Both the position numbers and the translations under genes were made by a program. DNA of 64,000 bases, taken from contig JAPDPQ010000001.1 of the NCBI GenBank assembly GCA_034506395.1, positions 4,435-68,434 on the forward strand, written 5' to 3'. The notes beneath the pieces were generated by a model that made no database searches, had not been told where the DNA came from, and was given only the letters and a program-made list of their open reading frames with translations. Numbering within the stretch: the stretch's first letter is position 1; every line of letters begins with the position of its first letter. This DNA comes from Candidatus Zhuqueibacterota bacterium (GTDB lineage: Bacteria; Zhuqueibacterota; Zhuqueibacteria; Thermofontimicrobiales; Thermofontimicrobiaceae). Shown piece by piece: positions 1,295 to 12,588 of the stretch.

Positions 1295-1510
1295 ATGTCA
1301 GAAGTGAACAAAACTATCCCGATTGAAGAACTGGTCGTAAAATTTCCGCAATCGGTCAATTATTTGATGAACAAAGGGATCAAATGCATTGTTTGTGGGG
1401 AACCGATCTGGGGGACGCTTGAGGACGCTGCAAAGGAGCGCGGTTTTAGTGATCACGATATCGAAAGGCTTGTCGACGAGCTGAATCAACAGCTATCGCC
1501 AACCCTTTAA
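1295..1510 (+). CDS. DUF1858-like small redox-disulfide domain protein (hybrid-cluster-protein-associated type)
   Basis: 71 aa reading IEELVVKFPQSVNYLMNKGIKCIVCGEPIWGTLEDAAKERG. The layout (helix, CxxC, 'tLEeAa..hG') matches my memory of DUF1858. Confidence 0.6.
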   Translation: MSEVNKTIPIEELVVKFPQSVNYLMNKGIKCIVCGEPIWGTLEDAAKERGFSDHDIERLVDELNQQLSPTL

Positions 1511-1714
1511 ATCTTGAAAACTGATCATAGATATGAGGGAATCCTCCATCATAAACCAATTGCGAAAATAAAACTATCACTTGAGTAGATAAAGAAGTCA
1601 CCTCTATCTCATTCATAAAAGTGCCAACAGATGCCTGCAGTCGCAGGCGTGACATTCAGAATGTGGGGACTTATTTTTGGTAGAAGTATAAATTTGATTA
1701 AGAAGGACAGCTTT

Positions 1715-2155
1715 ATGAGAGCAAGGATCAAACGAGTTGATGGGTTAAGTTTAATCGGGAAGGCGGATTCGAATCACTGGGTGCCAATGGACACAGTGGA
1801 GGATTTTGGCGGTCATAATGCGGGCACAAAACCGATGGAATTGGTGCTATTGGGGCTTGGCGGTTGTACAGCGATGGATGTGCTATCGATTATGACAAAA
1901 AAACGCGCGCCAATCCAAGATTTTGAAATGGAGCTTGAGGCTGAGCAAGCAGCAGATTATCCAAAAGTATTCACCAAAATCAAAATCACTTACATTTTTT
2001 ACGGGGACAAAGAGAAAATCAAGGGAAAAGATATTGAGCGGGCCATCGAACTCTCACGGGATGTGTATTGCCCCGTCTCCAATATGTTAAAACATTCGGT
2101 AGCCATTGAGCATCACTACGAAATTCGAGAGCCCAAAATTGGTACAGACCAATGA
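1715..2155 (+). CDS. OsmC/Ohr-family peroxiredoxin-like protein
   Basis: KPMELVLLGLGGCTAMDVLSIMTKKR and DVYCPVSNML are the two conserved Cys blocks of the OsmC family. Start placed at ATG 1715, preceded by AAGAAGGA, rather than the track start at 1631. Confidence 0.8.
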   Translation: MRARIKRVDGLSLIGKADSNHWVPMDTVEDFGGHNAGTKPMELVLLGLGGCTAMDVLSIMTKKRAPIQDFEMELEAEQAADYPKVFTKIKITYIFYGDKEKIKGKDIERAIELSRDVYCPVSNMLKHSVAIEHHYEIREPKIGTDQ

Positions 2156-2267
2156 CTGTTCTAATATGCGTCCCAGCAGCTACGGACCAATCATTTTTTC
2201 GAGTGAAACTTAGCTCTCGAGATTGAGCATCAACAAAATATGTCTTGTTTTTTTCATGAAAATTTCT

Positions 2268-2296
2268 ATATTTCCGTTAACAAAAAACGGAAATAT
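2268..2296 (+). promoter_or_regulatory. Perfect 11-bp inverted repeat (ATATTTCCGTT-N7-AACGGAAATAT) overlapping the sigma-factor start codon
   Basis: Read directly: left arm 2268-2278, loop 2279-2285, right arm 2286-2296. The A and T of the ATG at 2295 lie in the right arm. Confidence 0.5.
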
Positions 2297-2870
2297 GGAT
2301 ATGGAATTGACAGAACAAGAATTGATCCGTCGTGCAAAGCAAGGAGATCGGGCAGCTCAGGCTAAAATTGTAAAAGACCATGAGAAAATGGTCTATAATT
2401 TGGGTCTAAAATTATTGGGCAACCCTGACCAAGCAGAGGGCGTTTTGCAAGAGACCTTCCTCAAGGTATTGCAAGCGCTTCCCAAATTCGAGGAAAAATC
2501 TCAGCTCTCGACTTGGATCTATCGCATCGCGACCAATCAGGCGCTCATGCGATTGCGTTCTCGCAAACGTCGTTTTATTTCAATTGAGGAAAATCCAGAA
2601 TTTGAGGATAAAGATTACACGACCTTCGCTCAATCGTTGGATGCAACCCCACTGGATGACGTGCTGAATCAGGAATTGCGAGAAAAGATGGATCGAGCGA
2701 TTGAGCAATTGCCAGATAATTATAAAACAGTGTTCGTGATGAAGGATATCGAAGGGATGGCATTGAAGGAAATTGCAGAAATTTTAGACCTGTCTTTGCC
2801 TGCAGTCAAATCCAATCTGCACCGCGCCAGAGTTACTCTTCGAAATAAATTGGCTGAAATGTGGAACTGA
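2295..2870 (+). CDS. ECF-subfamily sigma-70 RNA polymerase sigma factor
   Basis: Region 2 (VYNLGLKLLGNPDQAEGVLQETFLKV..WIYRIATNQALMRLR) and region 4 (VFVMKDIEGMALKEIAEILDLSLPAVKSNLHRAR) motifs. Start moved to ATG 2295, or possibly 2301. Confidence 0.85.
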   Translation: MDMELTEQELIRRAKQGDRAAQAKIVKDHEKMVYNLGLKLLGNPDQAEGVLQETFLKVLQALPKFEEKSQLSTWIYRIATNQALMRLRSRKRRFISIEENPEFEDKDYTTFAQSLDATPLDDVLNQELREKMDRAIEQLPDNYKTVFVMKDIEGMALKEIAEILDLSLPAVKSNLHRARVTLRNKLAEMWN

Positions 2871-2880
2871 GGAATTTGCG

Positions 2881-3114
2881 ATGGAATGTTTTGAGTCTCT
2901 GGAAAAAATTTGTGAAGCGCTTGGAGAAGATATCGATAGCCCAATGTGCAAAGAGGTTGAGGAGCATTTGCGCAATTGCCCCCGCTGTTGCGCCCACGTC
3001 GATTCGGTCCGCAAGGTCGTTCGGCTTTATCGACAGATTGGCGATGCGGAGGTGCCTGTAGCCGTGGACGAACGATTGTGGAAAGTGCTCAATCTTTCAA
3101 AGCCACAAGACTGA
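2881..3114 (+). CDS. Short soluble zinc-binding anti-sigma factor (ZAS type)
   Basis: Starts 11 nt after the sigma-factor stop. 77 aa with EEHLRNCPRCC (HxxxCxxC ZAS motif). No hydrophobic segment long enough for a TM helix. Confidence 0.65.
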   Translation: MECFESLEKICEALGEDIDSPMCKEVEEHLRNCPRCCAHVDSVRKVVRLYRQIGDAEVPVAVDERLWKVLNLSKPQD

Positions 3115-3469: not shown

Positions 3470-4876
3470 ATGAGCACCCAGCCGGGAATTAAAATCCGAA
3501 AAATTGCTATCGGCGCCGACCATGCGGGATTTGAGCTCAAGGAGAAGCTCAAAAAATATCTTGCTGATCGAGGGCATCATCTTTTTGATTGTGGAACTTT
3601 CAGCACCGAATCCGTGGATTATCCGAAGATCGCCTTTCAGGTTGCACAATTGGTGAGCAGAGGCGAATATGAATTGGGAATCATGATCGACGGTGCGGGG
3701 ATTGGTTCGGCGATGGCAGCCAATAAGGTCCCCGGTATTCGAGCGGCTCTCTGTTACGATCTTTCGACCGCACGCAATAGTCGCGAGCACAACAACGCCA
3801 ATGTCCTCACTCTGGGGGGTGGGCTGATCGGTTTTGAATTGGCCAAACAGATCGTCGATACCTGGCTGGCATCAGAGTGCACAGTCGATCGACACCTGCG
3901 CCGAGTACAGATGATCCATGACATCGAACAAGGAAAATTCACTGTGAATCAGATAACGATGCCTCCAGGTCCCTCATCTGGGTTGGCAATTTCCGAGGAA
4001 GACGTTAAGAAAATCGTTTCGAGAGTCCAAACTTTATTACAGCAGCAGATGGGAACTGGTGCGATGTGGACATCCGCTAGTTGTCAAAATCCCACATGCA
4101 ATTCGTGCGGCCAATGTGCGAATAAGGCCCCTGATGCCGTTCGTCAATTTATTTCCATTGGTGCTGCGCGCATCTCTAATGCTCCAGGTGGCATCGGTGC
4201 CCCGCAGGACATCGCCAAATTTATTGACCACACGCTGCTCAAGCCAGAAGCTACGATTTCGGATATCGAACGGGTTTGTCAGGAGGCAGTGAAATATCAA
4301 TTTGCAGCGGTGTGTATTAATCCCTGCTATGTGAAATTGGCGCATGAATTGACACGTGGATCCAATGTAAAAGTTTGTAGCGTGGTTGGGTTTCCGCTCG
4401 GGGCAAGCATCACCGAGATTAAAGCCCTGGAGGCTCGGCGAGCGATTCGCGACGGGGCGAAGGAGATCGATATGGTAATCAACATCGGTGCACTCAAAAG
4501 CGACAATGATGAATTGGTGTTTCGGGACATCCGGACTGTGGTGGATGCTTGTGTGGATGGAAGCGCAATCTGCAAGGTTATCATTGAAGCAGCGCTCTTG
4601 ACCGATGAAGAGAAAGTGAGGGCGTGCGAGCTGGCAAAGCGGGCGCGAGCCCATTATGTGAAAACGTCGACGGGATTCGGCCCCGGCGGTGCGACTGCGC
4701 ATGACGTCGCGCTGATGCGACAGGTGGTGAGCGGCACACGAATGGGCGTGAAGGCTGCGGGCGGCATCCGATCGCTGGCAGACGCACAAAAGATGATCGA
4801 AGCGGGGGCCACTCGGATCGGCGCCAGCGCTGGCGTGAAAATCGTCCAAGAAGCAGCAAAGGTGGCAAATCCCTGA
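3470..4876 (+). CDS. Fusion protein: RpiB/LacAB-family sugar-phosphate isomerase (aa 11-155), linker (aa 156-245), deoxyribose-phosphate aldolase DeoC/DERA (aa 246-468)
   Basis: The N-terminal half reads [49 protein letters not shown] (RpiB family). The C-terminal half reads [42 protein letters not shown] (class I DERA with Schiff-base Lys). The linker holds an amphipathic helix ([19 protein letters not shown]) and a C-x4-C-x2-C-x2-C cluster. Confidence 0.9.
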
Positions 4877-5063
4877 TCGCCTCGGTCTCGTTCCCAACAC
4901 TTATCAGGTCACTATCGCTGCATCATCTTTTATTTTTTTATGCAAAAAATCGATGTTACATATAACTGAGAGCAAAACCGAACAAGATTAGTTATTGATG
5001 AGTCAGCCCATTTAAAATCCAAAATTCTAACAATGTTTTGAATTTGTTCACAAGGAGAGCTCT

Positions 5064-5693
5064 GTGGTTGACCTACGCGCTTATGTCTTTTTGGACAATC
5101 TTCAGCCGCAATACGCCGCCTTTTTGGGCACGGTGGCACAAGGGTTCCTGCCAATCGCCCACATGGCGTCGCTTTATGTCGAGATCTCCCCAGGGATCGA
5201 AATCAATCGTATCACGGATATCGCTTTGAAATCGACTCGGGTAACGCCGGGGATGCAAATTGTGGAACGCCTTTATGGTTTGCTTGAGATCCATTCTGAG
5301 TCTCAGGCGGACGTTCGGCAGGCTGGTCAGGCGATTTTGGACGCGTTGGGTTTAAAGGAAGAAGATCGCTGGAAGCCGAAGATTTACTCCAGCCAGGTGA
5401 TCCGACGAATTGATGACCATCAGACGCAATTGATTAATCGCATGCGCCACGGCAACATGATCATTCCGGGCCAGACATTGTATGTGATGGAAGTTGCCCC
5501 GGCAGCTTATGCCGCACTGGCAGCGAACGAAGCGGAAAAGGCCGCCGAAATTAATATCCTAGAGGTTCGAGCTTTTGGCAGTTTTGGACGCGTTTATCTG
5601 GGAGGAGAGGAACGCGATATCGACGTGGGGTGGCGCGCGGCTGTTCATGCCATTGAAAGCGTCACTGGCAAAATGTTTGAAGGAGCGTCTTAG
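5064..5693 (+). CDS. BMC shell protein with tandem BMC domains (BMC-T, probably permuted type)
   Basis: 209 aa with two halves, each showing the BMC-domain pattern (..[20 protein letters not shown].. and ..[45 protein letters not shown]). GTG start with AAGGAG 7 nt upstream. Confidence 0.6.
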
Positions 5694-5916
5694 GTCGCTA
5701 TCCCTCTGCGCCAAAATATTTTATTGCTGATGCGTATCAACCCCATGGGCTTAAAGTTCTTCATCTTTCCATAATGAAAAAATAACGGACGCTTTTAAGG
5801 GAAGCTCATAAATTTTCCAACTTTTTTTCAGACTTCTGTGCAATGAGCCGATATCGATCAATCTCCTGTCACTGTTGAATAGGTAGGAGTCTATTTTATT
5901 TTAACAAGTCACAACT

Positions 5917-5945
5917 CAGGCATGCCCGCATTAACAGGCATGCCC
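5917..5945. promoter_or_regulatory. Two copies of CAGGCATGCCC (palindromic core GGCATGCC) 18 bp apart; candidate operator upstream of the BMC-H gene
   Basis: Read directly: 5917-5927 and 5935-5945. They are bracketed by TTAACAAGT at 5901-5909 and 5992-6000. Confidence 0.4.
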
Positions 5946-6013
5946 CGATTTTGCAATTTATTTGAATTTTATGAAAGTCTCAGTTATTTAGTTAACAAGT
6001 TTAGGACAGCGCA

Positions 6014-6041
6014 TTGACAAATTGGTTTAGAACATTTTACT
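6014..6041 (+). promoter_or_regulatory. Candidate sigma-70 promoter for the BMC-H operon segment
   Basis: TTGACA (6014-6019), 16-nt spacer, TTTACT (6036-6041). AGGAGG Shine-Dalgarno at 6049-6054 precedes ATG 6063. The -10 element is weak. Confidence 0.3.
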
Positions 6042-6062
6042 GGTACTCAGGAGGAATGAAGC

Positions 6063-6383
6063 ATGGCCGAAGCTTTAGGAATGATTGAATGTCGTAGTTT
6101 TCCAGCAATGGTGGAAGCTGCAGATGCCATGGTTAAGGCTGCCAAGGTTGAGTTGGTCAGTTACGAGAAAACTGGGGGAGGATACGTCACTGCGATCATC
6201 CGTGGGGATGTTGCTGCGGTAAAGGCCGCTTGCGAAGCTGGACAAGCTGGTGCCGCCAAAGTGGGTGAGGTCGTTGCCGTGCATATTATCGCTCGGCCGC
6301 ACAGCAATGTGGACCTGGTATTGCCATTGGGCAGAAAGGAACAGGTAGCCGCAGAGCTGAAGAAAACCAAGCGCGATGAATAA
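6063..6383 (+). CDS. BMC shell protein BMC-H (PduA/EutM-like hexamer)
   Basis: [66 protein letters not shown] is the canonical single BMC domain. Confidence 0.95.
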
Positions 6384-6612
6384 TCAATAAAGGGCTGGAT
6401 AGAAGCCGCAAGTCAACGACGCTGCAAGTTGCTCTTGTTTGCTTTTAAAAATTTTTCAGCCAAGAGGCAAAACTATTTTTCCTTGCGTTAATAGCGGCTG
6501 AGAAAGAATTGAACTTCTGAAATAGCCCCTGATTCTGAATAGTTGGTAGCGAATAAGTTTGAAGCCATAAATTTGAGACAAATTGCTGCCAGAGTTATGA
6601 GCAGGAAAAGCT

Positions 6613-6912
6613 ATGGTATTAGCCAAAGTAATTGGGACCGTGGTCGCCACGCGAAAAGAAAAGAGCATGGAAGGGCTCAAATTCCTGCTTTTGCGACAGG
6701 TCGACCTCGATGGCAACGAGATTGGGGGTCATATCGTTGCTGCTGATGCTGTTGGTGCAGGTCTGGGCGAAATGGTGCTTTATGCCACTGGTAGCTCGGC
6801 TCGACAAACCGTAATGACTGATAAGCGGCCTTGCGATGCGGTCATTATGGCCATTGTGGATAACTGGGAAGTGAACGGACAGATCAAATACAAAAAAGGA
6901 CAACATGATTGA
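6613..6912 (+). CDS. BMC vertex protein BMC-P (EutN/CcmL family), paralog 1
   Basis: [51 protein letters not shown] is the typical EutN/CcmL pattern. Confidence 0.9.
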
Positions 6913-7027
6913 CCTGCTCCGCCGCCTAATATTTTCCATTAGCCGTGCAATGACAGATTGTTGAGATTTAAACTCCAATGAAACCGCAGGCTGATTTGGC
7001 ATTTAATGAAATAACAGGTAGCGCAAA

Positions 7028-7594
7028 TTGGATCGACCTTTTTTAATCGGCAAAAAGATCTATCTCCGACCAGTAGAGCCTGAGGATGCGGCATTTCTCG
7101 CTCGGGGGGAAAATCACCCAGCGGTGCGCGAGGCGTTATTTCTGGCATTCCCCGTGAGTATGGGAACTGAGCTGGAGAAGATCGAGCAATTCATCAAATC
7201 CAAAGAAGCAATTGTGCTGATCATTGTAGACCAGCAGACGAATCAACCAGTCGGCCAGACCGCATTCTTTCGCATCGATTTCGTCAGCCGAGCGGCCGTT
7301 TTTTATCTGGCAATCCTCGATCCGAGCCATTGGTCGAAGGGGTATGGCTCGGAGGCCACACAACTCATGGTTGATTACGCATTCGAGACGCTCAATCTCA
7401 ATCGCATCCAGCTTCATGTCTGCGCCGAAAATACCCCTGCCATTCGGATTTATGAGCGCGCTGGATTCAAAAAAGAGGGAGTTTTACGACAGGCTATGTT
7501 TCGCAACGGGGCTTATGTGGATTTCTGGGTGATGGGCATCTTGCGGAGCGATTGGTCGGTGCGATCTCAAAATAGCCAAGTCTTTTCGGCATAA
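7028..7594 (+). CDS. GNAT-family N-acyltransferase (RimJ/RimL-like) embedded in the BMC locus
   Basis: IYLRPVEPEDAAFL..SKGYGSEATQLMVDYAFETLNLNRIQLHVCAENTPAIRIYERAGFKKEG gives the GNAT motifs A/B. TTG start; there is no in-frame ATG upstream of the conserved core. Confidence 0.75.
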   Translation: MDRPFLIGKKIYLRPVEPEDAAFLARGENHPAVREALFLAFPVSMGTELEKIEQFIKSKEAIVLIIVDQQTNQPVGQTAFFRIDFVSRAAVFYLAILDPSHWSKGYGSEATQLMVDYAFETLNLNRIQLHVCAENTPAIRIYERAGFKKEGVLRQAMFRNGAYVDFWVMGILRSDWSVRSQNSQVFSA

Positions 7595-7741
7595 GCCAAT
7601 CAAATCCAGCCATAAATTCATCGACACAATAGGTATTTTTCGCCGGTGGTTGAATGATCTTAATAGTTGATTAGAGACTTTCGTTCACATACAACAATTA
7701 TTTGGTTTATCATGCGATCACTTTAACGCTGGAGCGAACCC

Positions 7742-9187
7742 TTGTCTTTCCTTGGTGAAAATCAGATCGAAACGATCGCCCAAAAAATTGTGGAGATCAT
7801 TATTGGCAAGAGCTCAGTGCCGGACGCGGGTATAAGGAGTAGCTCGGTCTTTCGTTCAGGCTGGTTGGGGATTTTCCCCACCATCGATGAAGCCGTGACC
7901 GCGACTTCGATCGCTCAGCGGCAATTGACCAGCATGACGCTCCGAAAGCGAGATGAGATCATCGCCAGTATCCGAGCCATGATGCTGGAACATGCGCGGG
8001 AGTTGGCCGAATTCGCCGTTGCAGAGACAGGGTTGGGCCGCGTCGAAGATAAGATTGCCAAAAATAAATTGGTGAGCGAGAAGACGCCTGGGACAGAAGA
8101 TCTCTATCCGATTGCCCGATCTGGAGACCACGGGCTAAGCTTGTTCGAGCCAGCGCCTTATGGCGTTATTGGCGCCATCACGCCAATTACCAACCCCACT
8201 TCTACGATCATCTGCAACACGATCGGAATGGTTGCAGCGGGCAACGGGGTGGTTTTCAACGTTCATCCTGGGGCAAAAAACACCTCAATCCAAAATATCC
8301 ATTTAATAAACCAGGCTATTATCCAAGCTGGTGGGCCCGTGAATTTGGTCAGTGGCATAACCGAGCCAACAATTGCAACGGCACAGCAATTGATGCGCCA
8401 TCCTGGGATACGAATTTTGGTCATCACAGGCGGAGGTGCTGTGGTCCGAGAAGCGATGAACAGTGGCAAGCGAGCCATTTGCGCTGGGCCCGGCAATCCA
8501 CCTGTGGTAGTTGATGAAACCGCTGATTTGGAGCGCGCTGGCGAGTTCATCGTGAAAGGCGCATCGTTCGACAATAACATCATCTGTGTGGATGAAAAGG
8601 AACTCATCGTGGTTGAGGCAGTGGCAGACCAATTGCTCAGGATCATGCAGAACAAAGGGGCGATCTTGCTAAAACCCCAGCTTCTCCCCCAGCTCGAGCA
8701 ATTATTGTTCGAGAAAACGAACGGGCCGGCCAAGCCAGGGATGATAAATAAAAGCTTGATCGGCAAAAATGCCAATTTGATCCTCTCGAAATTGGGGCTA
8801 TCGGTCGATGATCGGATTCGATTGGCCGTCATCGAGGTCGATCGCACCCATCCGCTGGTCTGGACCGAACAGATGATGCCAATTTTGCCGATGGTGCGGG
8901 TGGCGAATGCGGATGAGGCAATCGATTTGGCAAAACAGGTAGAAGGTGGAAATTATCATACTGCGGTTATGTATTCCCGAAATCTGGACAATCTCAGCCG
9001 GATGGCCCGGGAAATTAACACGACAATTTTTGTGAAAAACGGTCCCGCCTATGCTGGATTAGGATTTGGCGGCGAGGGATACACTTCTTTTTCTATCGCC
9101 AGCCCAACGGGAGAGGGCTTAACAGGTCCGCGCAGTTTCTCAAGAGAGCGGCGTTGCGTGTTGGTAGATCATTTTCGGATCGTTTAA
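7742..9187 (+). CDS. CoA-acylating aldehyde dehydrogenase (EutE/PduP family) with an N-terminal encapsulation-peptide-like helix
   Basis: 481 aa with the ALDH core and catalytic Cys context FDNNIICVDEKELIV. N-terminal ENQIETIAQKIVEIIIGK (7754-7807) is an amphipathic helix followed by a linker. TTG start with GGAG 7 nt upstream; the first internal Met is already inside the conserved core. Confidence 0.9.
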   Translation: MSFLGENQIETIAQKIVEIIIGKSSVPDAGIRSSSVFRSGWLGIFPTIDEAVTATSIAQRQLTSMTLRKRDEIIASIRAMMLEHARELAEFAVAETGLGRVEDKIAKNKLVSEKTPGTEDLYPIARSGDHGLSLFEPAPYGVIGAITPITNPTSTIICNTIGMVAAGNGVVFNVHPGAKNTSIQNIHLINQAIIQAGGPVNLVSGITEPTIATAQQLMRHPGIRILVITGGGAVVREAMNSGKRAICAGPGNPPVVVDETADLERAGEFIVKGASFDNNIICVDEKELIVVEAVADQLLRIMQNKGAILLKPQLLPQLEQLLFEKTNGPAKPGMINKSLIGKNANLILSKLGLSVDDRIRLAVIEVDRTHPLVWTEQMMPILPMVRVANADEAIDLAKQVEGGNYHTAVMYSRNLDNLSRMAREINTTIFVKNGPAYAGLGFGGEGYTSFSIASPTGEGLTGPRSFSRERRCVLVDHFRIV

Positions 9188-9188
9188 T

Positions 9189-9812
9189 ATGAAACTATAC
9201 CCTGCAATTGCGCTGATCGAGTTTAGTAGCATTGCCACCGGAGTAATTGCTGGCGATGCGATGATCAAAAGAGCGCCGATTTCCATGTTAAAGGCTGGCA
9301 CGGTCAGCCGAGGAAAATATCTGGTGATGATTGCTGGTAGCACAGCAGCGGTCGAGGAATCTTATCGGGCTGGTCTAAGCGTCGGCGAAGCTGCGGTCAT
9401 CGATAAGGTTTTTCTGCCTGATGTGCATCCGCAGGTGCTCGACGCTATCCTTGGAGCAAGAAAAAAAATCAGCTCCGAGGCACTCGGGCTGATCGAAACC
9501 GCATCTATTGCCGCGACGATCGCCGCCGCTGATGCTGGCATCAAAGGGGCGATGGTCGATATCATCGAAATTCGGCTGGGCGACGCATTGGGCGGCAAGG
9601 CATTTGTGATGATGAACGGAACAGTCCACGACGTCACCGCTGCAGTTACCATTGGGCTGAAAGCGATCTCCAATGAAGCGCTTTGGCGCAATCATATCAT
9701 CATCCCATCGTTGCATCACGAAATGGCCCGTCAGATCGACCGTTCGAGCCGATTTGCCCTGGTAGAATATCAAAAATTAGCTGGAGACGAGAGCGAACAT
9801 GTTACTGGGTAA
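9189..9812 (+). CDS. BMC shell protein with tandem BMC domains (BMC-T, PduT-like topology, no Cys)
   Basis: Two BMC domains: IALIEFSSIATGVIAGDAMIKRAP..KYLVMIAGSTAAVEES and ALGLIETASIAATIAAADAGIKGA..GGKAFVMMNGTVHDVTAAV. Starts 1 nt after the AldDH stop. Confidence 0.85.
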   Translation: MKLYPAIALIEFSSIATGVIAGDAMIKRAPISMLKAGTVSRGKYLVMIAGSTAAVEESYRAGLSVGEAAVIDKVFLPDVHPQVLDAILGARKKISSEALGLIETASIAATIAAADAGIKGAMVDIIEIRLGDALGGKAFVMMNGTVHDVTAAVTIGLKAISNEALWRNHIIIPSLHHEMARQIDRSSRFALVEYQKLAGDESEHVTG

Positions 9813-10089
9813 AGTGATCGGCACTGTTACGCCCTGCGTGGTTTACCCCGGACTCGAAGGCGTTCCGCTTCTGCTGGTTCAGCCGCTGAGTAAAAACTCC
9901 AAAGCGGTCGGCAAGCCCATTGTCGCCTGCGATGCCACCCGAATGGCTGGTCCAGGAGAACTGATCTATTACGAGGGCGGCCGCGAGGCAGCGCTGGCAT
10001 TAGATCCCTGGTTCGTCCCAGTGGATCACACCATCATTGGCATTGTGGATGGCGTCCATCTAATCGATGAAAGCTCTCAGTCCGAGTGA
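9799..10089 (+). CDS. BMC vertex protein BMC-P (EutN/CcmL family), paralog 2
   Basis: MLLGKVIGTVTPCVVYPGLEGVPLLLVQPL..VACDATRMAGPGELIYYEGGREA. Overlaps the preceding BMC-T gene by 14 nt. Confidence 0.85.
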   Translation: MLLGKVIGTVTPCVVYPGLEGVPLLLVQPLSKNSKAVGKPIVACDATRMAGPGELIYYEGGREAALALDPWFVPVDHTIIGIVDGVHLIDESSQSE

Positions 10090-10319
10090 AATTCAACTCT
10101 TTCAACCTCGCAGACAGCAAGTTCCTGCTGCAAAATGTCAAAAAGAGGCTATATTTTCACGCCGGCGAAGGCAGGTATCTCAACATTCGGTTGACCTAAC
10201 GATCAGTTTAGAAGGAGGTTCCTGTGCGCAAGCCAGCGGACAGAAATGAGAGGGCTCAACCATAGCGCTTTTTGCAACAGAAACTCGCTAGCTAATTTGT
10301 TAGAATTGGAGAAAAAGTT

Positions 10320-10592
10320 GTGATTATCGGCAAAGTCGCTGGAGAAATCTACTCCACGATCAACCACAGTTTCTATGATCAAAAAAAACTGCTGATCGTG
10401 GACAAATTGGACCTAACTGGAACGCCCACAGGCGACTATTTGATCGCAGTAGATTCCGTCGATGCTGGGCTCGGTGAAACGGTATTGGTCATTGATGAAG
10501 GCAATTCGGCCCGACAGGTAGTAAGCGATCCCAATGCGCCAATCCGCTCAATCATTATCGGGATCATCGATGCCGTGCGCATTGAGAGGTGA
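10320..10592 (+). CDS. BMC vertex protein BMC-P (EutN/CcmL family), paralog 3
   Basis: IIGKVAGEIYSTINHSFYDQKKLLIVDKLD..IAVDSVDAGLGETVLVIDEGNSARQ. GTG start with GGAGA 8 nt upstream. Confidence 0.85.
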   Translation: MIIGKVAGEIYSTINHSFYDQKKLLIVDKLDLTGTPTGDYLIAVDSVDAGLGETVLVIDEGNSARQVVSDPNAPIRSIIIGIIDAVRIER

Positions 10593-10840
10593 CTTCAATT
10601 CAAGAGCGAGATAGCAGCGTTCATCCTCCGTTCGCCGTTCCTTCGGTCCTCGCTCAAGCCAGTCGCTTCAGGTTGTCAAATTTATATCGATGCAAAGGAT
10701 GAAATATTTGACGAGCTCAAAGAGATTTGCTTTTACGATTTTGGGCCCTATTTGCATTCTTTCAGAAAAGCGTTATATTTAATTGATCGTTATTTAATCT
10801 TATTTCGAATTGCTAATCGAACCAAGCGTAGAAAGATTAT

Positions 10841-11527
10841 ATGGCGAATGAATGGCAATTGCGACGGGAGATCGTCGCGATTGGCAAAAAGGCTTACGAA
10901 CGCGGGCTGGTGACGGCCACAGATGGGAATATCAGCGTGCGAGTCATGGGAGATCGTTTTCTGATCACACCGAGCGGCAGTTGCCTCGGAGAATTGGCAC
11001 CCGAACAATTGGTTTATGTCGATTTTGAAGGCAAGACATTATCTGGCGGTAAGCCAACTGGAGAGCTGGCCATGCACCTGGCTGCTTATCGAGAGCGGCC
11101 AGACATCCATGCCGTCTTGCATGCACACCCACCAATTACCACGGGCTTTACCATCGCTGGCGAATCACTGGCGCAATGCGTCATCCCCGAGGTTGTGGTG
11201 ATCTTCGGGACCATCCCTACTACGGAATATGCCACTATTTCAACTGAAGAGGGTGCCAAAGTCATTCGGGAATTGATCCGCGACCATGATGCTTTGATAT
11301 TGGATCGGCATGGGACAATTACAGTGGGAAAAACCCTCATCGACGCATATCGCAAACTCGAGAAGGTCGAATATGCCGCCCAGGTCACCCTGGTTGCCAA
11401 ACAATTGGGCAAAGTGAAAACCTTATCGCGTGAACAAATTCAAAAATTGGAAGCCGTCAGGCAAAAATATGGCTATCAGGGCCGAAAATCGCTATGCGAG
11501 GCATGTGGCCTCTGCAATATTTCATGA
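10841..11527 (+). CDS. Class II (metal-dependent) aldolase/adducin-family protein (FucA/RhaD/DrdA/MtnB-like) with a C-terminal helix and CxxCxxC tail
   Basis: GLVTATDGNISVR..ELAMHLAAYRERPDIHAVLHAHPP..ILDRHGTITVGKTL gives the His metal ligands of class II aldolases. The tail is LSREQIQKLEAVRQKYGYQGRKSLCEACGLCNIS. Confidence 0.85.
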   Translation: MANEWQLRREIVAIGKKAYERGLVTATDGNISVRVMGDRFLITPSGSCLGELAPEQLVYVDFEGKTLSGGKPTGELAMHLAAYRERPDIHAVLHAHPPITTGFTIAGESLAQCVIPEVVVIFGTIPTTEYATISTEEGAKVIRELIRDHDALILDRHGTITVGKTLIDAYRKLEKVEYAAQVTLVAKQLGKVKTLSREQIQKLEAVRQKYGYQGRKSLCEACGLCNIS

Positions 11528-11694
11528 AATCAGTCAGCGCTGACGACTTCATCCAATTGAATTAAAGCATCGACAAATTGCCGTGATCGCCAATTGCGCG
11601 AATTGACCCAATTAACCCAATTTTGCTATTCGCCAAATTAGCTTTATTCGTTTGAATTCGCTGTTTTATTCTATATCCCATCGCGCCAATCCAG

Positions 11695-12588
11695 ATGAAG
11701 GAGAACAAATTTTTGACTGCAAATCAGCAAGAACCGATCCAATCCACATACGACTGTATCCCCTGTGCTATCGGGAGCCTGATCACTCTATTTAAAAAAG
11801 GACTGGTTTCAGAAAGGGATCAGGAAATCGCCATGCGAGCATTATTGCGTTATCTCAGCACCATTGATTTCCATCAATCCCCTCCCCAAATCGGTCAACA
11901 GATGCAACGGATCATTCGACACGTGCTCAATAATCCTGATCCGTATTTAGAAATCAAACAGCAATTCAATCGCTTGCTTCTCGATCATTACGTTGAATTA
12001 AAAGCATGGGTGGACCAGGCGGCAGATCCATTTCAGATGGCATTGCGATTGTCCATCGCTGGAAACGTGATCGATTTCGGTCCGAATCAACGCTTTGATG
12101 TCCACCAAACATTGGAACGGGCAAAGACTATTGTCCTGGCGATCGATGATTCAGAGCCTTTGCGCCAGGCCATCTCGAAAGCAACGCTACTTCTCTATTT
12201 GGGAGATAATGCTGGCGAAATCGTGTTGGATCGTATTTTCCTGGAAACGATTAACCATCCCAATGTCTATTTTGCTGTTCGCAGTGCGCCCATCATCAAT
12301 GACGCATTGCTGGAAGACGCAATCATGGTAGGAATCGACAAAATTGCCCATGTCATCACCAATGGGGATGATGCGCCTGGGACAATCTTAGAGAACACCT
12401 CAGCCCAATTTAAGACAATTTTTGACCAAGCGGATCTGATCATTTCAAAAGGCCAGGGCAATTATGAGGGTCTTAGCTGCGTTGATAAAAATATCTTCTT
12501 TTTGCTAATGACCAAATGCGAGCATGTCGCTAATCATCTTGGAGTAAAAAAAGGTGATTTTGTGGTGAAACAAGGACAAGGTTGTTGA
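11695..12588 (+). CDS. DUF89 (ARMT1-like) metal-dependent phosphatase family protein
   Basis: YLGDNAGEIVLDRIFLE and IISKGQGNYEGLS match the DUF89 signature blocks as I remember them. N-terminal CIPCAIGS. Confidence 0.7.
   Translation: MKENKFLTANQQEPIQSTYDCIPCAIGSLITLFKKGLVSERDQEIAMRALLRYLSTIDFHQSPPQIGQQMQRIIRHVLNNPDPYLEIKQQFNRLLLDHYVELKAWVDQAADPFQMALRLSIAGNVIDFGPNQRFDVHQTLERAKTIVLAIDDSEPLRQAISKATLLLYLGDNAGEIVLDRIFLETINHPNVYFAVRSAPIINDALLEDAIMVGIDKIAHVITNGDDAPGTILENTSAQFKTIFDQADLIISKGQGNYEGLSCVDKNIFFLLMTKCEHVANHLGVKKGDFVVKQGQGC

Follow-up and report, generated by a model that had tools for sequence, protein, structure and literature searches.

Sugar-phosphate-utilising (SPU) bacterial microcompartments (BMCs) rank among the metabolosomes of widest distribution, and biochemical work on them has only recently begun. 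For one class, SPU3, Dwyer, Sutter & Kerfeld (2024; PMC11585597) described a chimera of RPI and DERA together with an SPU-specific N-terminal extension of DERA, consisting of an amphipathic helix of ~30 residues and 'two beta strands' of low pLDDT. The same authors proposed the inter-domain region of RPI-DERA as an encapsulation peptide (EP), reported that EPs are N-terminal on the SPU acylating aldehyde dehydrogenase (AldDH) and C-terminal on class II aldolases of SPU5, and described SPU RPIs, in which Asp replaces the catalytic Cys, as being without isomerase activity on ribose 5-phosphate. For Hodarchaeales BMCs, a 2025 preprint (PMC12747264) predicted EPs 'as linkers between two domains' (Flav+DERA, CS+PTAC) and reported that enzymes which contain an EP and are tagged with GFP are selectively recruited to shell particles. 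For class II aldolases from PVM and PVM-like as well as GRM5 compartments, Aussignargues et al. (2015; PMC4594438) described a linker of 23-81 residues followed by an EP of ~17 residues. Here we describe a locus of the SPU type in a 64,000-nucleotide stretch of a Candidatus Zhuqueibacterota genome (GCA_034506395.1, contig JAPDPQ010000001.1, positions 4,435 to 68,434; hereafter the window, whose own coordinates are used throughout), in which an RpiB-DERA fusion and a FucA-type aldolase each carry a conserved cysteine loop that resembles a metal-binding knuckle.

By the definitions in PMC11585597 the locus is SPU3-like: it combines an extended DERA, an acylating AldDH, BMC-H, BMC-T and a triplet of BMC-P shell proteins with the RPI-DERA fusion and the Cys-to-Asp exchange in RPI. 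It also shares with SPU3 the BMC-Tdp, the long amphipathic helix with a low-confidence element between it and the barrel, the region proposed as inter-domain EP and the N-terminal EP on AldDH, and it differs by adding a FucA-type aldolase, a GNAT acetyltransferase and a nearby DUF89 phosphatase and by lacking PTAC, alcohol dehydrogenase (AlcDH) and PduS. With the Hodarchaeales Flav+DERA protein it has in common that an EP lies between the fused domains of a DERA protein of the SPU type, the partner there being a flavoprotein rather than RpiB. An EP buried between fused domains, which a first-pass annotation of this DNA had singled out as unusual, had thus been published already for RPI-DERA (PMC11585597), and a linker EP had been tested in Flav+DERA (PMC12747264). 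The cysteines are a different matter. In the SPU3 paper the element after the helix figures only as 'two beta strands (low pLDDT)', with cysteines and metals unmentioned there; the word 'cysteine' has no occurrence in the Hodarchaeales preprint; and our literature search, which included the SPU, Hodarchaeales and aldolase EP papers, found no published description of the motifs. While the AldDH EP and the internal EP of the fusion were already known, the Cys motifs therefore appear undescribed, and what is new would be conserved, ferredoxin-like Cys knuckles in the DERA extension and at the start of the aldolase linker.

Cysteine loops in the DERA extension and the aldolase tail

We propose that these loops are lineage-variable metal-binding knuckles at the base of targeting extensions, with an iron-sulfur (Fe-S) site favoured for DERA, a reading on which our own confidence is evenly divided. 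It concerns the following features:

3470-4876, + strand: RpiB-DeoC (RpiB-DERA) fusion gene, 468 residues, SPU signature enzyme (Pfam LacAB_rpiB 12-149, DeoC 250-460)
3989-4048, + strand: internal EP-like amphipathic helix, residues 174-193 (AlphaFold2 (AF2) model, hydrophobic moment, conservation)
4082-4117, + strand: four-Cys knuckle C205-x4-C210-x2-C213-G-x-C216 (CNSCGQC), then A-x-K-A-P; invariant in the clade
4118-4204, + strand: conserved helix and connector from the knuckle to the DERA barrel, part of the SPU-specific extension
4205-4876, + strand: DERA TIM-barrel domain (matched by solved DERA chains over query residues 246-460, E down to 1.6e-77)
7742-9187, + strand: acylating AldDH with N-terminal EP and variable linker (Pfam Aldedh)
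10841-11527, + strand: FucA-like class II aldolase, 228 residues (Pfam Aldolase_II, PF00596)
11423-11479, + strand: native FucA C-terminal helix LSREQIQKLEAVRQKYGYQ, not an EP (FucA structure alignment, AF2)
11495-11515, + strand: C-terminal three-Cys motif C219-x2-C222-G-x-C225 (CEACGLC; conserved in homologues)

The first-pass annotation had placed the four-Cys span and the aldolase tail (11423-11524, cysteines at 11495-11515) exactly; the peptides it quoted are all present on the + strand, and Pfam bears out its domain calls (RpiB and DeoC in one open reading frame, Aldedh, Aldolase_II, BMC-H, two BMC-T, three BMC-P). Its helix coordinates need small shifts, by one codon for AldDH (7757-7810 instead of 7754-7807) and likewise for the fusion, where the quoted string starts at 3992, position 3989 belonging to Ile174.

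In the DERA loop, the four cysteines and Pro221 are the only positions invariant among 30 clade members whose loop identity falls to ~30%. Across 195 DERA extensions, fused and unfused (120 database homologues and 75 genomic loci, which are phylogenetically non-independent, so that counts overstate the number of events), the number of loop cysteines is bimodal, with 0-1 in 56, 2-3 in 26 and at least four in 113, the mode being four (94 extensions). Spacings differ by lineage, 4-2-2 (66/195) occurring beside 2-3-3, 3-2-2, 3-4-3 and CxCCGxxCxxxC. Cys-free orthologues from otherwise identical loci have hairpin-like sequence at the loop site (IVCSRDNTVIIHYGH; LMDGRGVSVEK; pattern IVCSxxNTVIIHYGH), and P221, G231 and R234 are kept in all extension variants, Cys-free ones included. 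A constant ligand number of four combined with shifting positions and all-or-none loss is what would be expected of a tetra-coordinate structural metal centre.

The aldolase is of the FucA type, with an invariant Zn site (H94/H96/H157 and E75) and an alignment to FucA structures that runs through residue 213 and includes the ...KYGY segment. Its segment LSREQIQKLEAVRQKYGY had been taken for an appended EP helix, a candidate we reject: it is the native C-terminal helix of FucA, aligning to VLPDEEMELMAEKFKTYG in 4c24 (197-214 of its 217 residues) and to 6btd through residue 213, both of them non-BMC proteins, so that it is present rather than missing in non-BMC homologues. Its hydrophobic moment (0.24) equals the shuffle mean, and AF2 places the helix (197-209) within the fold at a pLDDT of ~90. 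The sole part of the protein beyond the FucA fold is YQGRKSLCEACGLCNIS, in which the three-Cys tail lies nine residues after the catalytic-tail Tyr and the chain stops three residues past the motif. The other members of its clade (homologues P0121-P0157) stop at that point too, and neither the window aldolase nor this clade has a recognisable EP. In distant BMC aldolases the core is followed by CxxCxxC, a linker and a classical terminal EP (for example VDERVVDVVVEEVLRVL and EIRLTYRELSALIEDAIRNLR); in further clades of BMC aldolases the motif comes with two Cys (APAPIC...CQVVQAP) or is lacking. The CxxC(G)xC tail recurs in 80 of the 120 closest homologues, and in an alignment of 28 diverse tails C15, C18 and C21 do not vary and the Gly is conserved to at least 90%. 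There are always three cysteines, never four, and there is no Pro; AF2 models the tail as ordered (pLDDT 73-82).

The window protein belongs to the same family as the PVM and GRM5 aldolases, and its relatives follow the layout of core, linker and EP that PMC4594438 sets out; the window clade differs in ending at the Cys motif, EP-less like two exceptions listed there. That paper gives the linker as 'without composition or sequence conservation', yet its first seven residues form the conserved CxxC(G)xC in many lineages. The tabulated composition figures of the same paper, 5.5% Cys in aldolase linkers against 1% or less in those of AldDH, CcmN, PTAC and one more linker class, pass there without comment.

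Both motifs lie outside the folds known for these enzymes, as the first-pass annotation had held. Solved DERAs align to residues 245/246-460 only and solved RpiBs to 4-155 only, and residues 156-244 therefore represent a BMC-specific insert, extra to non-BMC homologues; alignments to solved FucA likewise exclude the aldolase motif. CxxCGxC occurs exactly twice in the window (six-frame segments of at least 60 residues), once in the fusion and once in the aldolase, where residue shuffles expect 0.05 copies and yield two or more with P = 0.001; the chance of a CxxCxxC in the shuffled protein is 0.009 for DERA and 0.001 for the aldolase. As judged from the alignments, the Cys strings are under strong purifying selection outside the solved DERA, RpiB and FucA folds. 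Against an expectation of the first-pass annotation, that orthologues in related BMC loci share the motif, many of them lack it: 56/195 DERA loops have 0-1 Cys, and 39 of 121 aligned aldolases (the window protein and its 120 closest homologues, 82 of them tail-bearing) have no CxxCxxC.

Of the EP-like helices that had been claimed for all three cargo enzymes, those on AldDH and the fusion stand. The fusion architecture is common to 120 homologues, and in their alignment the pattern LSxEDLxxIAxRIxxLL runs throughout. The window helix has the ~15-20 residues of an amphipathic EP, a hydrophobic moment of 0.45 that 4% of shuffles match, and an AF2 model (176-193) at a pLDDT of 63-72. Unfused DERAs have the equivalent helix at their N-terminus; in the window it is internal (174-193 of 468) because RpiB is fused upstream, and in place of a free, poorly conserved linker it has the conserved Cys loop and helix on its C-terminal side. 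With just eight codons between its start and the preceding stop, the fusion itself lacks an N-terminal EP. Its RpiB part has Asp74 (3689-3691) for the catalytic Cys, nearly invariantly so in a 49-sequence alignment. In AldDH the EP-like helix ENQIETIAQKIVEIIIGK (7757-7810) sits at the terminus ahead of a variable linker, and 45 orthologues from related loci conserve the pattern L[ST]xxQ[VI]DxIAxR[LV]; its hydrophobic moment of 0.35 is not significant against shuffles, and its heptad-like pattern is conserved. By sequence criteria, then, both are conserved EP-like helices on BMC cargo, as previously described.

Proposed metal binding and the choice between iron-sulfur and zinc

Presence, conservation, distribution and ferredoxin-like pattern of the loops are observed; that they bind metal, which metal this would be and what structural part it may play are our proposals. 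In the fusion, the order is EP helix, Cys4 loop, conserved helix and barrel, and in the aldolase the core precedes the Cys3 loop, behind which relatives have a linker and the EP; the loops sit at the base of the extensions, between the catalytic domain and the EP position. A knuckle there could give the tether a fold and keep the EP helix in place on the enzyme, acting as a structural or stability module that is separate from the EP and possibly oxygen-sensitive. That Cys-free orthologues carry hairpin-like sequence at the loop site would make this role structural rather than catalytic, and a metal-free, Cys-free beta-hairpin may render the knuckle dispensable in such lineages. Facultative structural metal knuckles are known from C+/C- ribosomal proteins, the adenylate kinase lid and the Fe-S domain of archaeal RNA polymerase subunit D. 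The DERA loop shares with them four cysteines that come all-or-none among orthologues and a metal-free hairpin that substitutes in some lineages; those cases usually have two separated CxxC pairs, whereas here the ligands are contiguous within 11-14 residues.

Metal or Fe-S binding, one of several functions the first-pass annotation had considered, is a reasonable candidate on these patterns. For the DERA loop we envisage a ferredoxin-type site, [4Fe-4S]-like and with four thiolate ligands. Bacterial ferredoxins (CxxCxxCxxxCP) share with it the CxxCGxC core, with Gly after the second Cys in both window motifs (CNSCGQC, CEACGLC) and conserved in both clades, as well as a Pro, four residues past the third Cys, with which a helix starts. 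The loop reads like half a ferredoxin motif and compares with the clostridial ferredoxin sequence TCIDCGNCANVCPV, its relatives read TCIDCGQCADKAP, and 76 of 198 extensions combine an upstream Cys with CxxCxxC-x3-(non-Cys)-Pro. The full canonical CxxCxxCxxxCP is present within the family, in the unfused DERA extension of a Ca. Aquidulcis locus (Chloroflexota; L076), which reads CTDCQFCAQKCP; three further loci (L020, L054, L061) have CxxCxxxCxxxCP, and Cys-Pro at the helix cap is kept in 15 of the 198 extensions. When the loop profile is compared with the PDB, single-cluster 4Fe-4S ferredoxins come first (7m1n at E=0.064, 1clf, 1iqz). Pfam gives sub-threshold matches to Fer4_15 in 11 of the 30 clade members (best E 0.0022) and to Fer4_13 in seven (best E 1.6e-4), and in unfused members to Fer4_9, Fer4_8, Fer4_21 and Fer4_6 at E ~0.003-0.006, the latter scoring 14.5-18 bits against cut-offs of 21-35 bits.

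As a side observation, eight of the DERA loci (L076, L048, L057, L058, L061, L063, L065 and L077) show no shell gene in the fetched stretch with its full 10-kb flanks and are maybe satellite loci.

In place of the fourth Cys-Pro of ferredoxins the window has A-N-K-A-P, with the Pro kept and the Cys changed to Ala, and the Cys upstream of CxxCGxC could replace the missing ligand. Precedent comes from a 16-mer maquette, KLCEGGCIACGACGGW, which assembles a [4Fe-4S] cluster in vitro with the arrangement C-x3-C-x2-C-x2-C (PMC6374738); it too has its fourth Cys a few residues upstream, the window spacing being C-x4-C-x2-C-G-x-C. The loop differs from bacterial ferredoxins in having no beta-alpha-beta fold around it, and neither a ferredoxin fold nor a score above a curated threshold was found; cluster binding here is a prediction from the motif.

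In the strongest competing reading neither loop has any Fe-S chemistry, and each is a simple structural Zn(Cys)n knuckle, swappable for Cys-free hairpins and comparable, in stiffening a hairpin, to the C+/C- ribosomal proteins and the adenylate kinase lid. It is a real possibility, if one that we doubt. The bimodal cysteine count and the hairpin-like sequence in Cys-free orthologues suit it well, as does the general experience that short bacterial Cys4 loops usually bind Zn. A mononuclear Zn that used all three cysteines of a contiguous CxxCxxC would, however, be unusual, this arrangement being a hallmark of cubane sites, and the Zn reading also has to contend with the canonical CxxCxxCxxxCP within the family, with the Pro kept at the ferredoxin position and with 4Fe-4S ferredoxins as top PDB and Pfam matches of the DERA loop. 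The layout of a zinc ribbon or rubredoxin, two CxxC knuckles flanking a beta-hairpin, is absent, as the ligands lie within 11-14 residues with no hairpin between them; this leaves room for other Zn geometries.

A number of observations weigh against an Fe-S site, or against a metal site altogether. AF2 gives the DERA loop a pLDDT below 50 and hence no structural support, and the non-independence of the sequences tempers the counts given above. All matches with a listed Pfam cut-off fall below it, and PDB matches of the DERA loop profile have E values of at least 0.064. For the window's own loop the sole Pfam match is to a Zn-finger family, AZUL (E=0.017), and a longer segment around the loop has no Pfam match. 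A dispensable Zn knuckle would also account for the frequent loss and the variable spacing, and the locus encodes no redox partner (PduS, ferredoxin). The aldolase tail has three cysteines, not four, and weakly matches families of different kinds, a 2Fe-2S domain (8uem, E=0.0026) standing next to GATA, ZZ and CHY zinc fingers; we have dropped any assignment of its metal from Pfam or PDB matches. Weighing both sides, we tentatively favour an Fe-S-type site for the DERA loop, a judgement that falls a little short of an even chance, over Zn, which we consider less probable at this site though well worth keeping in mind.

How a three-Cys tail might complete a site is suggested by the aldolase core. 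Position 179 (11375-11377, in VE[YH]CA[QR]V) is Cys in 66% of tail-bearing and 3% of tail-less aldolases, and Ala in the window; C113 is present in all 82 tail-bearing and in 67% of tail-less aldolases. Either C113 or C179 could supply a fourth ligand to the tail, and the enrichment at position 179 could equally be phylogenetic hitch-hiking.

A bolder form of the Fe-S proposal would see the loops as true Fe-S sites, natural ferredoxin maquettes that serve as an oxygen or redox switch for extension folding and encapsulation. With the cluster in place, the extension would be folded and the EP presented, and cargo would condense and be encapsulated; with the cluster lost on oxidation, the extension would unfold and cargo would aggregate or be degraded. 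A switch of this sort would account for the report that DERA with its extension is insoluble in aerobic E. coli, and in the aldolase the Cys3 tail together with a core Cys (C113 or C179) could hold the mobile C-terminal tail fast and gate the enzyme's activity in this way. We regard this as unlikely.

Relation between the two motifs and encapsulation

The first-pass annotation had seen in the near-identical strings of the two aldolases a common function, with redox-controlled docking or cross-linking to the shell among its candidates. In its full form this explanation makes CxxCGxC one shared device, by which the enzymes dock or are cross-linked to each other or to the shell, and thereby part of the encapsulation signal. 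Both motifs do adjoin EP positions on the pair of signature aldolases that one operon encodes, with no other CxxCGxC in the window, they co-occur in the window, in its closest relative L164 and in L161, and an EP-less aldolase requires some route into the shell. Co-variation can be followed at eight loci with both genes:

DERA loop 4 Cys, aldolase tail 3 Cys: window, L161, L164
DERA loop 4 Cys, aldolase tail 1 Cys: L002
DERA loop 3 Cys, aldolase tail 1 Cys: L163
DERA loop 0 Cys, aldolase tail 3 Cys (CERCGVC): L165
DERA loop 0 Cys, aldolase tail 0 Cys: L036, L052

All four combinations of presence and absence are thus found, and we reject an obligate pair. An aldolase is present in just three of 37 adequately flanked DERA BMC loci, and Cys-bearing aldolases are common in BMC loci that are free of DERA. 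For CxxCxxC aldolases from metagenomes, mostly on short contigs, shell genes lie nearby in four cases, none lies within at least 5 kb in two, and nine have short flanks. Two Cys-bearing aldolases (L097, L162) have no shell gene within ~10 kb on either side, a BMC elsewhere in the genome being conceivable, and a third (L083) has none in its fetched flanks, which reach ~5 kb only on one side. Nor do the shell proteins look like partners: both BMC-T and the BMC-P at 10320-10592 have zero Cys, and in the remaining three one or two Cys are scattered, so a shell Fe-S site at a pore Cys as in PduT was rejected, both BMC-T being Cys-free and BMC-H having two scattered Cys. AldDH, which is also encapsulated, has no CxxCGxC-type motif.

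The neighbours of the three aldolases outside recognisable BMC loci (L097 9992-10903, L162 10001-10690, L083 9047-10681) are unrelated genes, among them a PanE-like reductase, PhzF, GH113, a type II secretion system gene and a Na/Ca exchanger; the L097 aldolase has a terminal EP-like helix too, and the L083 open reading frame runs ~320 residues upstream of the aldolase domain.

We also found no evidence for a portable module of helix plus Cys on other families and rejected it. A phmmer search with the 77-residue extension against 1.84 billion representatives returned four matches, of which three are DERA proteins or pieces of them and the fourth is an unrelated protein of Cys-rich repeats, and a regular-expression scan of all open reading frames in 80 related loci met CxxCGxC nowhere but in DERA, the aldolase, a single genuine ferredoxin and spurious frames. 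Together with other DERA spacings and the difference between four and three cysteines, the four combinations of presence and absence weaken the case for a common function, and redox-controlled docking or shell cross-linking as a shared device is poorly supported; we consider it improbable that the two form one device. From the comparison of loci, the DERA and aldolase motifs are independent, and the near-identity of CNSCGQC and CEACGLC would reflect the same chemistry, that of a CxxCGxC metal loop, rather than a shared partner. Without a terminal EP, the window aldolase would then need another way into the shell, either by piggy-backing on other cargo or via an ordered Cys tail.

Still less probable, to our minds, is that the cysteines form intra- or intermolecular disulfides, a metal-free redox switch like that of the carboxysomal CcmM SSUL domains. 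The even number of DERA cysteines (four), the precedent of redox-sensitive Cys in carboxysome scaffolds and genes just upstream that encode an ECF sigma factor, an anti-sigma factor with an HxxxCxxC motif and OsmC are in its favour; it sits badly with the odd number in the aldolase (three), with a CxxCxxC whose conserved Gly and Pro are typical of metal loops, with hosts that are mostly uncultured sediment and groundwater lineages and with the lumen of an NADH-producing metabolosome, which we would expect to be reducing. Least probable of all is a coincidental similarity of strings whose Cys have no specific role, for although the motifs are short and many orthologues have lost the DERA loop Cys, these are invariant within clades while neighbouring residues vary, and the shuffle probabilities given above are low.

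The surrounding locus and what the loops may mean

From RpiB-DeoC through the aldolase, the shell and cargo genes form one operon on the + strand, which in addition to the three enzymes listed above contains:

5064-5693, + strand: BMC-Tdp (Pfam BMC)
6063-6383, + strand: BMC-H (Pfam BMC)
6613-6912, + strand: BMC-P (Pfam EutN_CcmL)
7028-7594, + strand: GNAT acetyltransferase (Pfam Acetyltransf_3)
9189-9812, + strand: BMC-Ts (Pfam BMC)
9799-10089, + strand: BMC-P (Pfam EutN_CcmL)
10320-10592, + strand: BMC-P (Pfam EutN_CcmL)

The locus combines two aldehyde-generating signature enzymes, DERA and the FucA-type aldolase. PTAC (PduL), AlcDH and a PduS homologue, which would bear on how CoA and NAD+ are recycled in the compartment, are encoded neither in nor beside it (3470-12588). 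Gene order is syntenic in L161, L163, L164 and L165. The acetyltransferase, RimJ/RimL-like and located between a BMC-P and AldDH, is kept in L164 and absent in L161, L163 and L165; its substrate could be the N-terminus of proteins of the shell or the cargo. Directly 3' of the aldolase lies an ARMT1-like/DUF89 damage-control phosphatase (11695-12588, + strand) with a CxxC (YDCIPCAIG) at its N-terminus, near the locus in L164 too, for which sugar-phosphate housekeeping in the service of a sugar-phosphate BMC is plausible. Directly 5' of the operon lie four genes (1295-3114, + strand) whose block is syntenic in L164, the closest genome:

1295-1510, + strand: DUF1858-like small protein
1631-2155, + strand: OsmC-family protein
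2223-2870, + strand: ECF sigma factor
2881-3114, + strand: putative anti-sigma factor, 77 residues

The putative anti-sigma factor has an H-x3-C-x2-C motif (EEHLRNCPRCC) and resembles the zinc/redox-sensing ZAS class, and the sigma/anti-sigma block may control the BMC operon by redox state.

The fusion is far from rare: a search of GTDB species genomes confirmed it in at least 594 stretches, compared with a published count of 20 loci. The 80 related loci kept from this search for comparison represent Calditrichota, Neomarinimicrobiota, Planctomycetota, Acidobacteriota, Woeseiaceae and Fibrobacteraceae, among others, and in ~30 of them, mainly from Chloroflexota and Acidobacteriota, RPI and DERA are separate, adjacent and unfused genes.

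For this family of compartments, our findings mean that the DERA extension contains a conserved Cys4 loop which the papers describing the extension do not discuss, and that the 'poorly conserved linker' of BMC class II aldolases opens with a conserved CxxC(G)xC, some clades, including that of the window, being EP-less. If the metal site proves true, a cargo-targeting extension would for the first time have a metal or cluster site assigned to it. SPU DERA has been reported to be insoluble when expressed with its extension, and the Cys knuckle points to anaerobic handling and a supply of Fe-S or Zn as a practical lead for its purification. The cysteines themselves provide a mutational handle on core assembly.

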